Counted from the first letter of the stretch, positions 32,164 to 41,101 are shown. The stretch: 64,000 nucleotides of DNA from Anaerovoracaceae bacterium (GCA_050953505.1 JBMNMU010000001.1:919434-983433); one strand, 5' to 3'. A program made the numbers and translations. Notes: generated from the sequence alone by a model not told the origin.

Positions 32164-34067
32164 GTGTGCGTCCAGCAAAGCTGGCAAATGCTAACAGGTG
32201 AAAGTCCTGTAGTGGTAAAGGTAGGGCAGCCACTTAGTCAGTAACCAGCGTATGGAGTAATCTATACGTTGAAGCGTTACGGAATGTTTTGAAAGGAACA
32301 GGCAAACTGACGGGTTGTAACATAAAGTGAATACTGCCGCACCGTTATTGACATTCCCGAAAGGGAACAACAGGGAGTCGAGCTGAGACATCAACGGCGA
32401 AGACAGCAGACGGTATGAAGAACCCTAAATGCAATACCTAAGAACCCTGCGGTGTAGAGGTAACGACACGTTAGGAAAGTATTTGTCGGAACTGGAGAGA
32501 GCCTACTTTGCACAGGAAACTGTAAAGAGGACGCATATAAGCGAAAGTGAAATTGCAGTCCTGCAAAGAGGCAGTCAGAAGTGCCCATAGTACCAATGAT
32601 TGTGCAGACAGCAAAACTGTACATAGGAAAGGGGCACAACTTTATTCATGTCTGCAAAGGAGGTAGGTGCTGGTGATTGCAGATGATGCTATTAACACCC
32701 ATGAAAAAGTACGAGACTTCCAAAACAGACTATACCTTGCAGCCAAAGCTGACCGAAAGAGAAAGTTCTATGCGATGTATGACAAGATATACCGGAAGGA
32801 TATTTTGAATGAAGCATGGAAACGAGTAAAGGCGAATGGTGGGGCAGGCGGCATTGATAAAGTCAGCATAGAAGATGTGAAAGCATACGGCGAGAATAAG
32901 TTGCTGTGTGAAATAGCGGAAGAATTGCGGACGGAAAAATATCGGTGCAAGCCAGTCAGACGAACCTATATTCCAAAAGCAGACGGCAGAAAAAGACCAT
33001 TAGGAATCCCTACAATCAAGGACAGAATCGTTCAGATGGCGGCAAAATTAGCAATCGAGCCGATATTTGAGGCGGATTTTCAGTCTTGTTCGTATGGATT
33101 CCGACCAAAGCGAAGTGCGAAGCAGGCAATGGACAGAATATTCGAGGTTGCGGACAATGGTGGTGCACTGTGGGTAATAGATGCTGATATAAAAGACTAT
33201 TTCGGCAACATAAACCATGAAAAACTGCTTTTGTTGTTGGACCAAAGAATAACTGACCGCAAAGTGTTAAAGCTGATAAACGGCTGGTTGAAGGCGGGTG
33301 TGCTAGAATCAGGTCAATACAGTAAAAGCACAGTTGGAGCACCTCAGGGTGGTGTAATATCGCCATTATTATCCAACATATATCTAAATTATTTTGATAT
33401 ATACTGGAACAAGCACTTTGGGCACCTAGGCGAGCTGGTACGATACGCAGATGATTTTGTGATATTGTGTAAGCGAAAAGCGCAGGCAGAAGAAGCTCTG
33501 AGAGCAGTGAAATGGATTATGAAGAAACTGGAATTGACACTGCATTCCGAGAAAACAAGGCTGGTAGATATGTATTTTGGAAAAGACAGTTTTGATTTTC
33601 TTGGCTTCAACAACAGATTTCAGCGGTTCAGAAATAAAAGTTGGAAGTGGTATTGGACATTACAGCAAGTTCCATCCCAAAAGGCTATGAAGAAAATGAG
33701 AGCCAACATCAAAGAGGTGTTTACAAGTCCGAGCAAACTACTGTGGAGCATGGAAGAAATGGTGATACTGCTCAATCCTAAAATTATTGGGATGAGAAAT
33801 TATTATGCAAGACGGTTTACAAGACCATGGTTATGGAAGATAGAGAAGTACATCAATTACAAATTTACCCGGTGGTATAATCGGAAGAAACAACGTAACT
33901 ACAGGCTTGGAAATGCGGCAAAGGTTAGAGAATTAACCTTGCAGGCAGGGCTGGCAAGTATTTGCGGCTGAATGCTGAAGAAAGAAGAATATCGGAAAGC
34001 CGTATGCGGGAAAACCGCACGTACGGTTTGATGAGGGGGCGGTGGCAACCCCACTGCTCTACTCTAT
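32164..34067 (+). mobile_element. Group II intron, copy 1 (1904 nt) with an intact intron-encoded protein
   Basis: 5' GTGTGCG (the GUGYG consensus). Domain V at about 33997-34030 (AAGCCGTATGCGGGAAAACCGCACGTACGGTTT). 3' end CTACTCTAT with a candidate branch A at -7 and a terminal AY. An RT ORF lies in the domain IV position. Confidence 0.88.
32667..33971 (+). CDS. ltrA: Group II intron reverse transcriptase/maturase (434 aa, no obvious HNH endonuclease domain)
   Basis: RT motifs RPLGIPTIKDRIVQ, GAPQGGVISPLLSNIYL, RYADDFVILC. C-terminal maturase X region (RNYYA). GTG start after AAGGAGG. Confidence 0.92.
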   Translation: MLVIADDAINTHEKVRDFQNRLYLAAKADRKRKFYAMYDKIYRKDILNEAWKRVKANGGAGGIDKVSIEDVKAYGENKLLCEIAEELRTEKYRCKPVRRTYIPKADGRKRPLGIPTIKDRIVQMAAKLAIEPIFEADFQSCSYGFRPKRSAKQAMDRIFEVADNGGALWVIDADIKDYFGNINHEKLLLLLDQRITDRKVLKLINGWLKAGVLESGQYSKSTVGAPQGGVISPLLSNIYLNYFDIYWNKHFGHLGELVRYADDFVILCKRKAQAEEALRAVKWIMKKLELTLHSEKTRLVDMYFGKDSFDFLGFNNRFQRFRNKSWKWYWTLQQVPSQKAMKKMRANIKEVFTSPSKLLWSMEEMVILLNPKIIGMRNYYARRFTRPWLWKIEKYINYKFTRWYNRKKQRNYRLGNAAKVRELTLQAGLASICG

Positions 34068-34204
34068 CACGCATATCTGGGGGTAAGTAAAAGCATCCAC
34101 ACTATATATGGTGATTTTGCAACTCTAAAAGCGAATATTAGCCTACTTAACATTCACACTATAACCTGATATAATTAGGCTATATTTGAACAAGGAGTGA
34201 AAAG

Positions 34205-39025: not shown

Positions 39026-39197
39026 CAGTTTGTTTTTGTATGCGAAATTGAAATAGCCTACTTATTTGAAGCAATAAGATGGATGCCGAGACAATTCACT
39101 ACACATAAAAAAGCTTGCAAAATCAATGTTTTTTTACAAGTGATGGACATGTTTCCTCAATAGCCTAACTATCACACGTTGAGACGGTCGTATTGAT
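39026..39197 (+). repeat. Conserved right-end block of mini-element 2 (copy 2), ending in the 23-nt rumA-tail core
   Basis: Homologous to 35583-35753. Contains TAGCCTACTTA (39054-39064), a further TAGCCTAAC near the core, and the core CACGTTGAGACGGTCGTATTGAT (39175-39197). Confidence 0.9.
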
Positions 39198-41101
39198 GTG
39201 TGCGTCCAGCAAAGCTGGCAAATGCTAACAGGTGAAAGTCCTGTAGTGGTAAAGGTAGGGCAGCCACTTAGTCAGTAACCAGCGTATGGAGTAATCTATA
39301 CGTTGAAGCGTTACGGAATGTTTTGAAAGGAACAGGCAAACTGACGGGTTGTAACATAAAGTGAATACTGCCGCACCGTTATTGACATTCCCGAAAGGGA
39401 ACAACAGGGAGTCGAGCTGAGACATCAACGGCGAAGACAGCAGACGGTATGAAGAACCCTAAATGCAATACCTAAGAACCCTGCGGTGTAGAGGTAACGA
39501 CACGTTAGGAAAGTATTTGTCGGAACTGGAGAGAGCCTACTTTGCACAGGAAACTGTAAAGAGGACGCATATAAGCGAAAGTGAAATTGCAGTCCTGCAA
39601 AGAGGCAGTCAGAAGTGCCCATAGTACCAATGATTGTGCAGACAGCAAAACTGTACATAGGAAAGGGGCACAACTTTATTCATGTCTGCAAAGGAGGTAG
39701 GTGCTGGTGATTGCAGATGATGCTATTAACACCCATGAAAAAGTACGAGACTTCCAAAACAGACTATACCTTGCAGCCAAAGCTGACCGAAAGAGAAAGT
39801 TCTATGCGATGTATGACAAGATATACCGGAAGGATATTTTGAATGAAGCATGGAAACGAGTAAAGGCGAATGGTGGGGCAGGCGGCATTGATAAAGTCAG
39901 CATAGAAGATGTGAAAGCATACGGCGAGAATAAGTTGCTGTGTGAAATAGCGGAAGAATTGCGGACGGAAAAATATCGGTGCAAGCCAGTCAGACGAACC
40001 TATATTCCAAAAGCAGACGGCAGAAAAAGACCATTAGGAATCCCTACAATCAAGGACAGAATCGTTCAGATGGCGGCAAAATTAGCAATCGAGCCGATAT
40101 TTGAGGCGGATTTTCAGTCTTGTTCGTATGGATTCCGACCAAAGCGAAGTGCGAAGCAGGCAATGGACAGAATATTCGAGGTTGCGGACAATGGTGGTGC
40201 ACTGTGGGTAATAGATGCTGATATAAAAGACTATTTCGGCAACATAAACCATGAAAAACTGCTTTTGTTGTTGGACCAAAGAATAACTGACCGCAAAGTG
40301 TTAAAGCTGATAAACGGCTGGTTGAAGGCGGGTGTGCTAGAATCAGGTCAATACAGTAAAAGCACAGTTGGAGCACCTCAGGGTGGTGTAATATCGCCAT
40401 TATTATCCAACATATATCTAAATTATTTTGATATATACTGGAACAAGCACTTTGGGCACCTAGGCGAGCTGGTACGATACGCAGATGATTTTGTGATATT
40501 GTGTAAGCGAAAAGCGCAGGCAGAAGAAGCTCTGAGAGCAGTGAAATGGATTATGAAGAAACTGGAATTGACACTGCATTCCGAGAAAACAAGGCTGGTA
40601 GATATGTATTTTGGAAAAGACAGTTTTGATTTTCTTGGCTTCAACAACAGATTTCAGCGGTTCAGAAATAAAAGTTGGAAGTGGTATTGGACATTACAGC
40701 AAGTTCCATCCCAAAAGGCTATGAAGAAAATGAGAGCCAACATCAAAGAGGTGTTTACAAGTCCGAGCAAACTACTGTGAAGCATGGAAGAAATGGTGAT
40801 ACTGCTCAATCCTAAAATTATTGGGATGAGAAATTATTATGCAAGACGGTTTACAAGACCATGGTTATGGAAGATAGAGAAGTACATCAATTACAAATTT
40901 ACCCGGTGGTATAATCGGAAGAAACAACGTAACTACAGGCTTGGAAATGCGGCAAAGGTTAGAGAATTAACCTTGCAGGCAGGGCTGGCAAGTATTTGCG
41001 GCTGAATGCTGAAGAAAGAAGAATATCGGAAAGCCGTATGCGGGAAAACCGCACGTACGGTTTGATGAGGGGGCGGTGGCAGCCCCACTGCTCTACTCTA
41101 T
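39198..41101 (+). mobile_element. Group II intron, copy 2 (1904 nt), near-identical to copy 1 at an offset of 7034 bp
   Basis: Same 5' GTGTGCG, domain V and 3' CTACTCTAT. I saw only two differences from copy 1: G to A at 40780 and A to G at 41082. Confidence 0.88.
39701..41005 (+). pseudogene. Intron-encoded RT/maturase inactivated by a nonsense mutation (TGG to TGA at 40778-40780)
   Basis: The track splits it into 359-aa and 73-aa ORFs. Both are identical to the corresponding parts of the 434-aa copy-1 protein. The stop replaces the W in ...SKLLWSMEEM... Confidence 0.9.

Follow-up and report, generated by a model that had tools for sequence, protein, structure and literature searches.

The 64,000-nt window analyzed here (Anaerovoracaceae bacterium, GCA_050953505.1, JBMNMU010000001.1, positions 919434 to 983433) contains two copies of a group II intron within a tandem array of three serine-recombinase integrative elements (A, B, and C) located in the 3' end of the rumA/rlmD gene. 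The intron is a mobile bacterial group II intron, mechanistically ordinary, which lacks an endonuclease domain and does not belong to class IIC. It is very probable that this intron is retromobile, and that it entered the array twice by homing to a junction that is itself made by the integrative elements. The homing site would be composite and straddle the recombinase crossover, one part being contributed by the attachment (att) core and the other by the left end of the element located to the right. A preliminary description of the window, made from the sequence alone, had reported the two introns and their insertion into an att-like core; its 5' boundary, and several conclusions that depended on it, had to be revised. 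Homologous loci are designated below by L followed by a number.

Intron boundaries and target pairing

The rumA exon and the two intron copies comprise the following features.

31022-32165, plus strand: 5' exon of rumA/rlmD (23S rRNA m5U methyltransferase; Pfam tRNA_U5-meth_tr, homologues named RlmD)
32166-34067, plus strand: group II intron copy 1, 1902 nt, GUGCG...CUAU, with an intact reverse transcriptase (RT)/maturase; supported by Rfam and 15 homologous insertion sites
32332-32339, plus strand: tentative candidate for exon-binding site 2 (EBS2), UACUGCCG, which would pair with intron-binding site 2 (IBS2), (CG)GUAGUA, at exon positions -15 to -8
32388-32394 (intron nucleotides 223-229), plus strand: EBS1, ACAUCAA, in a 9-nt hairpin loop, GCUG[AGACAUCAA]CGGC
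32667-33971, plus strand: intron-encoded RT/maturase, 434 aa from GTG 32667 or 432 aa from GTG 32673
33998-34028, plus strand: domain V, followed by domain VI extending to 34067, with a bulged branch-point A at 34061 and the end ...CUAU (RF00029, ViennaRNA fold)
39200-41101, plus strand: group II intron copy 2, after junction J3, with an RT open reading frame (ORF) at 39701-40780 (359 aa, TGA at 40778-40780) and a G at 41082

Both copies matched the Rfam models RF02003 (domains I to IV, 90 bits for a threshold of 49 bits) and RF00029 (domains V and VI, 54 bits) at the gathering threshold, in agreement with the domain V noticed initially. Domains I to III folded better than every shuffle tested (z = -3.9). 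The Rfam matches, the presence of an ORF with RT and X domains, and the bulged A of domain VI located 7 nt from the 3' end identify the sequence as a group II intron. The termini, GUGCG at 32166 and ...CUAU at 34067, fit the GUGYG/AY consensus and are kept in the 15 homologous copies.

The only Pfam domains detected in the intron ORF were RVT_1 (1e-38) and GIIM (1e-6), with no DNA-binding or endonuclease domain; a YADD motif (...RYADDF...) was read in the sequence. Of the two possible start codons, GTG 32673 is better spaced from an AGGAGG motif. The protein is 100% identical to a protein from one Anaerovoracaceae metagenome-assembled genome (MAG), and a close RT homologue is hosted by Acetivibrio clariflavus (formerly Clostridium clariflavum). 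Most of the matches listed in a scan of genome contigs with the RT were 41-54% identical, the close ones among them being only L001 and L077, and plasmid and phage collections contained relatives that were only ~64-74% identical and annotated ltrA. The non-ORF parts of the intron amount to ~500 nt upstream and ~96 nt downstream of the ORF, for a ribozyme of ~600 nt. The 50 nt preceding the insertion site contained no stable hairpin (z = +0.4 to +1.1), and stem-loop recognition of the IIC type was therefore rejected. Thus, the absence of a hairpin and the size of the ribozyme set the intron apart from class IIC, whereas the protein was not discriminating since group II RTs of classes IIC, IIB, and IIA from the PDB matched it alike (160-184 bits, 1e-46 to 1e-53). 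The presence of YADD instead of FADD argues against class g2. Two 'unclassified' Clostridium introns of 434 aa/1929 nt and 430 aa/1919 nt (Toro 2013, Table S2) are linked to the present intron by size only.

The boundaries were determined by comparing 15 insertion sites with different flanks and introns at least 85% identical, which originated from Anaerovoracaceae samples, Acetivibrio mesophilus, A. clariflavus, Herbinix, and other metagenomes. All 15 sites read ...TTGATGN/GTGCG...CTCTAT/C, N being T in 12 cases, A in two, and C in one. Since nucleotide -1 varies before an invariant GUGCG, it belongs to the exon. The 5' boundary is accordingly 32166 in copy 1 and 39200 in copy 2, the intron is 1902 nt long, and the preceding GT is exonic, so that each copy follows ...GTATTGATGT and not ...GTATTGAT. 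The preliminary description had placed the 5' end 2 nt upstream (GTGTGCG), for a length of 1904 nt; its start-to-start spacing of 7034 bp and its insertion of both copies at the same nucleotide of the core were retained. The 3' boundary, at 34067 and 41101, was also correct, as indicated by the position of the bulged A and by the empty homologous junctions J2 and L153 (rumA joined to a mini-element), which keep the +1 C.

The revised 5' boundary is further supported by the pairing between the intron and its target. EBS1 forms 7 bp with IBS1 (UUGAUGU) at 32159-32165 and 39193-39199. The EBS1 loop, which has a probability of 0.86 of being unpaired, is invariant in 14 of the 15 close relatives (it was not located in L102), and the stem of the hairpin covaries (U.G, C-G, or U-A). 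The predicted EBS1 duplex has an energy of -6.6 kcal/mol at GT sites versus -2.7 kcal/mol at the AA site. In a more distant intron with the same motif (L226 and L227, RT 69% identical), the exon reads UUGAUAG and the loop CUAUCAA. This compensatory change falls exactly at the positions previously assigned to the intron. For EBS2, the search produced a candidate only, which probably pairs with the GUnGUn codons located just upstream; the predicted duplex ranges from -5.8 to -11.8 kcal/mol, and the unpaired fraction of the segment in the thermodynamic ensemble is only 33%. A possible partner of the +1 C is the G directly preceding EBS1 (delta or EBS3 candidate).

Two of the homologous loci displayed unusual intron ends. 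The L226 (~960-2900)/L227 intron, present with the same sequence in two samples, has a non-canonical 5' end, (G)UCGCG, and a 3' end reading ...CUGU; inactivity or a displaced splice site could account for these ends. In L094 (1-125), an intron 3' end (...CTCTAT) is joined straight to a 5' end (GTGCG), after a domain V fold-back. This arrangement could correspond to a tandem or circular intron or to an assembly artefact; the fold-back is typical of the latter, and L094 was dropped as boundary evidence.

With the corrected boundary, splicing is predicted to generate the tails ...HVETVVLM/SRISGGK for copy 1 and ...VVLM/SRVK for copy 2, each followed by a stop codon, the predicted ligated exons being ...GUAUUGAUGU/CACGCAUAUC at J1 and ...GUAUUGAUGU/CAAGGGUU at J3. 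These tails match those of many of 120 RlmD homologues, which are intron-free and end in HVE[TC]VVLMSR(V/I/K).... The tails initially proposed ended in ITHIWG and LIKG. A caveat attached to them had identified the correct reading frame but obtained it by moving the 3' instead of the 5' boundary. The initial model as a whole, i.e., an intron spanning 32164-34067 (GUGUGCG...) right after ...GTATTGAT, three equivalent cores, and a copy 2 abutting the ancestral tail ...LIKG, is highly improbable. GTGTG fits GUGYG too, and a hairpin follows the tail after copy 2. However, this boundary would make the introns of L104 and L105 start with GAGUGCG and that of L087 with GCGUGCG, and would place within the intron the GU that pairs with EBS1 and changes with the exon in L226. 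In addition, no tail like ITHIWG or IKG was present among the 120 RlmD homologues, in which VVLMSR... is common, and the sequence following copy 2 is a conserved mobile left-end module that is swapped in L232 (see below).

Unspliced read-through at J1 would replace SRISGGK by CASSKAGKC, 3' of the last conserved motif. Little therefore depends on splicing at J1, since only the last 7-9 residues of RumA are affected. The public annotation of RlmD in the source MAG does run on into the intron (...VVLMCASSKAGKC). No ORF enters the 5' exon of copy 2, a stop codon being located 3 codons upstream of the core, and, as read from the sequence, no gene needs the splicing of this copy. Many of the RlmD tails ending in ...VVLMSRVK would be derived from elements.

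Element junctions and the homing site

The array and its four junctions comprise the following features.

34068-35753, plus strand: element A, with the tail SRISGGK (stop at 34088-34090), a 306-aa serine recombinase (34205-35125), and two small membrane ORFs
35754-39197, plus strand: element B, with a 306-aa serine recombinase (35895-36815), an ECF sigma factor (36987-37544), and a serpin (37541-38986)
~41102-47028, plus strand: element C, with the tail SRVK (stop at 41113-41115), a hairpin (41127-41150), GGGAACAAGTC, and four GTGGTCnnTTTAGATGT repeats (41239-41357)
41443-41946 and 41933-44533: cargo of element C, fur and a rubrerythrin/FAD protein, respectively
44626-46248, minus strand: large serine recombinase of element C, 540 aa (Pfam Resolvase, Recombinase, and Zn_ribbon_recom)
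32141-32165: J1, rumA-A, the last 25 nt of the rumA 5' exon, i.e., att core (32141-32163) and GT (32164-32165) at -2/-1; 3' side CACGC; intron present
35731-35755: J2, A-B, AA at -2/-1; 3' side CACGC; no intron, two EBS1 mismatches at -1/-2
39175-39199: J3, B-C, core and GT; 3' side CAAGG; intron present
47006-47047: J4, C-tail, degenerate core CATATTGAGTGTGTTTGCTTGAT, then CG and AGGCATTAAATGCTTAG; 3' side AGGCA; no intron

Elements A, B, and C each have a serine recombinase gene by one end and an att core at both ends. Presence/absence or cargo swaps were also found: element C is replaced by another element, C', in L232, C-type left ends are associated with other cargo, and L153 harbors an intron-free array. 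The 23-nt core was found three times in the window, for 0 occurrences expected by chance, and a fourth, degenerate copy lies at 47006-47028. The right ends of elements A and B (1.7 and 3.4 kb) carry the cores at 35731-35753 and 39175-39197, respectively, and have the repeats D3/D4 in common. The recombinases of A and B, which are 89% identical to each other, contain the Pfam Resolvase and Recombinase domains without a zinc ribbon.

Element C is an element rather than a chromosomal tail because it has a conserved mobile left-end module and its own recombinase (35% identical to recombinase B) and because it is replaced in L232. The sequence following copy 2 is thus the left end of element C, and not an ancestral rumA tail, as first proposed. 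The segment 41196-41363, containing GGGAACAAGTC and the four GTGGTCnnTTTAGATGT repeats, is 78% identical to the sequence located 3' of the intron in L100 to L103, where the cargo differs. GTGGTCnnTTTAGATGT repeats were also present 86-210 nt (509 nt in one case) downstream of 29 of 66 unoccupied target sites in metagenomes. The right end of C contains three inverted GACnTGTTCCCnnGAAC repeats (46861-46960) followed by the degenerate core, an inverted repeat pairs 41194-41215 with 46867-46888, and a motif found at this end, DINxxxSxH(V/I)EC, also terminates the right ends at six other occupied sites. The conserved end module, in which GGGAACAAGTC precedes three or four GTGGTCnnTTTAGATGT repeats spaced ~30 bp apart, recurs in the window (41194-41363), in L100 to L103, and in 29 of the loci L106 to L185. 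Its layout is suggestive of sites bound by an accessory protein or a recombinase.

In a sister strain (L232/L243), the same elements A and B are followed by the different element C' (15610-18629 in L232), with genes for an aminoglycoside-resistance-like protein, a hexapeptide acetyltransferase, a methyltransferase, and an MFS protein as cargo. The right end of B is joined there to C' via AA CAAGG, and no intron is present. On the other side of element C, J4 translates as ...HIECVCLIEALNA (DINLMLSFHIECVCLIEALNA), ending in a stop codon, and is followed by the strongest terminator of the region (47119-47150). Since tails of the type HIECVCLIE... are present in intron-free RlmD homologues, the native rumA tail is most probably located at 47029-47047.

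The distribution of the intron among the four junctions matches its pairing potential. Junctions with GT followed by C (J1 and J3) carry the intron; AA (J2) and CG followed by a +1 A (J4) are empty. The middle core is thus uninterrupted, as initially noted, but it is not an equivalent target since AA at -2/-1 mismatches EBS1. The core variants at 32143, 32152, and 32155 segregate with the left partner, and the -2/-1 dinucleotide with the right partner, as indicated by the fact that B is joined via GT to C but via AA to C'. In a simple model of serial integration, this pattern would bracket the recombinase crossover to TTGAT..CA. EBS1 would base-pair with UUGAUGU in the DNA target, the probable EBS2 with GUnGUn, and a G with the +1 C. 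The UUGAU portion of IBS1 would originate from the att core, which is common to rumA and to every element right end, and the GU and the +1 C would be contributed by the right-hand element, at its left end. A homing site of this composition would exist only at junctions, or in attP circles, of elements with a GT-C left end.

The survey of homologous loci supports the conclusion that the intron follows the elements rather than the gene. The initial proposal that the intron targets a motif serving both as a rumA tail and as a serine-recombinase att site was borne out: the TTGATG(T/A/C)/C arrangement was common to all occupied sites, 12 of the 15 being element right ends and the remaining three having rumA itself upstream. 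Unoccupied targets are numerous, with at least 120 exact pattern matches in metagenome contigs. Among 80 contigs fetched, at least 19 contained a full rumA ending 4 nt before the junction, and many others had short unrelated upstream sequences corresponding to element right ends. Identical 3' flanks recur beside diverged rumA genes, as expected of mobile left ends. Locus L153 provides an intron-free analogue of the array, in which rumA is followed by a mini-element (short recombinase 65% identical) and by the left end of the next element, with the same conserved tail sequence and one GTGGTC repeat match.

Several additional observations concern the elements. In L081 (1-646), an occupied site, the upstream ORF runs in from the contig edge and encodes at least 215 aa of a membrane protein unrelated to RumA, which ends in ...VYVETVVLM, i.e., the att core, indicating that an element gene reads into the core. 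The 306-aa recombinases also lack a coiled coil. The possibility that they are truncated pseudogenes was rejected based on the 89% identity between A and B and on the existence of homologues of ~300-335 aa aligning over their full length, which are common in the representative library; other homologues, of 1100-1300 aa, match in two stretches. In element B, the ECF sigma gene overlaps the gene of the 481-aa serpin, which has an N-terminal extension of ~120 residues that may be an anti-sigma-like fusion. An ECF sigma factor is also found after the intron in A. clariflavus (L105). Finally, an IS3-family insertion sequence breaks recombinase B in one sample (L231/L240, 15549-16705 in L231), indicating that the array is decaying by insertion-sequence activity too.

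Origin and consequences of the two copies

The segments 32156-34069 and 39190-41103 are identical except for two substitutions, which were the only differences reported initially. The first (G>A, 33746/40780) converts TGG into TGA and shortens the maturase from 434 aa in copy 1 to 359 aa in copy 2. The second (A>G, 34048/41082) is located in the terminal loop of domain VI, for which ViennaRNA predicted the same fold with either base. Both copy-2 alleles are derived since all relatives carry the copy-1 alleles. Outside the intron, the copies have in common only the 23-nt core (2 mismatches) upstream and CA downstream. The exact spacing and the near identity of the copies could have suggested a segmental duplication of the intron plus its flanks. 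This origin has next to no probability, as the flanks differ on both sides, a point already made in the preliminary description, and the interval holds two different elements.

The copies would rather have arisen by retrohoming, one from the other or both from a common source, and the occurrence of near-identical introns at many independent sites points indirectly to retromobility. In the absence of an endonuclease domain, mobility should depend on primers provided by replication forks, a mechanism established for endonuclease-less introns (PMC4424553). Retrohoming was probably primed in this manner for the present intron, as in others of this type. The sense strand of the intron is the G-rich strand (GC skew of +0.12 to +0.21), an orientation that agrees, weakly, with insertion into the lagging-strand template.

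Retrohoming might have been responsible for a single entry, followed by homologous recombination. A circle containing A and B, with the intron in its attP-like junction, could have integrated into an intron-bearing rumA-C junction, or the reverse exchange could have occurred. Such an exchange would yield precisely the arrangement seen, the composite homing site exists in attP circles as well, and the copies evidently exchange sequence; moreover, an att site split by the intron would be unusable by the recombinase, leaving homologous recombination as the only route. We nevertheless consider this scenario rather unlikely. Only 2 of 1902 nt differ, both derived in copy 2, which a recent intragenomic copy would explain equally well or better. 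None of the contigs contained a circle or an attP bearing the intron, and an earlier homing event into attP would still be required. Retrohoming into both J1 and J3 is preferred.

Variation was analyzed in ten same-strain contigs from JGI and Logan. These contigs displayed the same array wherever it was reached, and every contig reaching J1 carried the intron. Neither these contigs nor neighbour-gene look-ups yielded a J1 without the intron, a 7034-bp deletion allele, or an attB free of elements. Intron nucleotide 1581 was G in both copies in L229 and L231, G in copy 1 and A in copy 2 in the window, and A in both copies in L230 and L233. L236 has the stop codon in copy 1, and the contig does not cover copy 2. 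At nucleotide 1883, in the domain VI loop 302 nt away, copy 1 always had A and copy 2 always had G. The distribution of the nonsense allele suggests gene conversion between the copies, or else mixing of reads in assembly. If gene conversion did occur, the 1.9-kb repeats do recombine; the interaction of the direct repeats envisaged initially would then be retained, although not in the form of a 7034-bp deletion. If the genotypes are correct, strains persist without an intact maturase at this locus. For this reason, dependence of copy 2 on the copy-1 protein in trans does not hold as a general rule.

The intron may affect the elements in which it resides. A serine recombinase dimer must bind two att half-sites. 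The insertion would be located at most ~7 bp from the crossover, so that 1.9 kb would separate the half-sites. The introns at J1 and J3 would each split the att sites to which they belong, namely attL of A, attR of B, and attL of C. With one att site broken per element, individual excision of A, B, and C should be blocked. A more far-reaching proposal is that the intron lineage is a hyperparasite of rumA-targeting serine-recombinase elements, with a homing site made only by a GT-C end and the core (in attP, in attL, or between two elements), and that it permanently disables excision by landing a few bp from the crossover, freezes arrays, and co-evolves through EBS1 with the ends of the elements. 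We put this forward tentatively, as a possibility with the odds against it. If correct, arrays could be rearranged further only by homologous recombination or gene conversion between intron copies, and the EBS1 sequence CUAUCAA, matching ...GAUAG junctions, would reflect co-evolution of the intron and element ends.

A different question is whether the intron is kept for a function, as a lock stabilizing cargo elements or as a regulator of transcription of rumA or of the elements, rather than as a neutral parasite. The presence of the intron in all same-strain contigs reaching J1, the stability of the array across ~10 samples, and the fact that A, B, and C each have one split att site are in favor of retention. 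The maturase is dead in one or both copies in several samples, which argues against selection for splicing or mobility, and, in metagenomes, empty sites greatly outnumber those with an intron. Maintenance for a function is thus improbable.

Several points weigh against homing to a composite junction as the explanation of these data. Splicing and the exact ligated junction are predictions from the sequence. EBS2 and the partner of +1 (delta or EBS3) are candidates only. L087, L104, and L105 are occupied despite a mismatch at -1 (A or C) with an unchanged EBS1, indicating that GT at -2/-1 is preferred and not obligatory. The position of the crossover was deduced from a simple model of serial integration. 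Some of the ...VVLMSR... tails may be native to rumA, in which case the target is not always composite. The pattern used for the metagenome survey forced GT and CA and cannot show natural variability of the site, neighbour-gene look-ups provided no element-free allele to back the assignment of the native tail at J4, and the genotypes come from metagenome assemblies, in which mixing of reads over a 1.9-kb repeat could mimic gene conversion.

Elsewhere in the window, an insertion of ~13.5 kb (~10108-24113) separates argR (9637-10107) from ruvC (24114-24620). It contains genes for a D5-type primase (18125-20428), a phage capsid-like protein (20693-21592), TnpW, and a 550-aa serine recombinase with DUF4368 (21929-23581). 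The capsid-like, TnpW, and recombinase genes were also found upstream of ruvC in L230, L231, L240 to L242, and L245. The insertion is absent from L229/L239, in which argR and ruvC are 510 nt apart.

Relation to known systems

Bacterial group II introns usually reside inside other mobile DNA. One mobile element living on others is thus a tidy arrangement but not an unprecedented one; it is the target that is noteworthy here. RmInt1 of Sinorhizobium meliloti is an endonuclease-less IIB intron that homes into ISRm2011-2. It resembles the present intron in having an RT without DNA-binding and endonuclease domains, in relying on EBS1, EBS2, and EBS3 for homing, in having its target in a mobile element, and in its presumed priming at replication forks. 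It differs in belonging to another RT lineage and in targeting the interior of an insertion sequence, whereas the present intron would target a junction made by integration. Ll.LtrB, a IIA/ML intron with an endonuclease domain, is located in a lactococcal conjugative relaxase gene and lowers its expression. Both introns are inside a mobile element that they potentially restrain; for the present intron, the proposed effect is a physical disruption of the att site.

In Firmicutes, integrative elements repeatedly insert at the 3' end of rumA, a hot spot, and also supply the gene with a replacement tail. Integrative and conjugative elements of Streptococcus suis are flanked by rumA, the intron that they contain lies in snf2, and no intron at the rumA junction is described in that report (PMC9815147). 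Compared to such elements, A and B are very small and have recombinases of only 306 aa without a zinc ribbon. In the literature searched, the coverage of which was incomplete, no intron was found to be described at either the rumA tail or the att site of a serine recombinase, which does not prove novelty. Occupied junctions can be compared here with matched empty ones, and a retargeted relative as well as population variants are available, making the window and its homologous loci a clean natural system. This system lets one ask how introns track the ends of their host elements and whether an intron immobilizes integrative elements by splitting their att sites.

The closest parallel is provided by introns associated with integrons. 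Three target specificities are recognized among bacterial group II introns, namely homing sites, terminators, and attC sites, and S.ma.I2 is among the introns that insert at integron attC sites (PMC4424553). As for the present intron, the natural targets of the IIC-attC introns are recombination sites of a site-specific recombinase system, and the intron is found between cassettes or elements. The IIC-attC introns differ in their recognition of a stem-loop and 3-4 bp, their ribozyme of ~400 nt, the absence of EBS2, and their association with a tyrosine recombinase. In contrast, the present intron has a ribozyme of ~600 nt and a 7-bp EBS1 pairing, its target has no hairpin, and the recombinase is a serine recombinase. 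The present intron thus appears to resemble the IIC-attC introns in its ecology and not in its mechanism.

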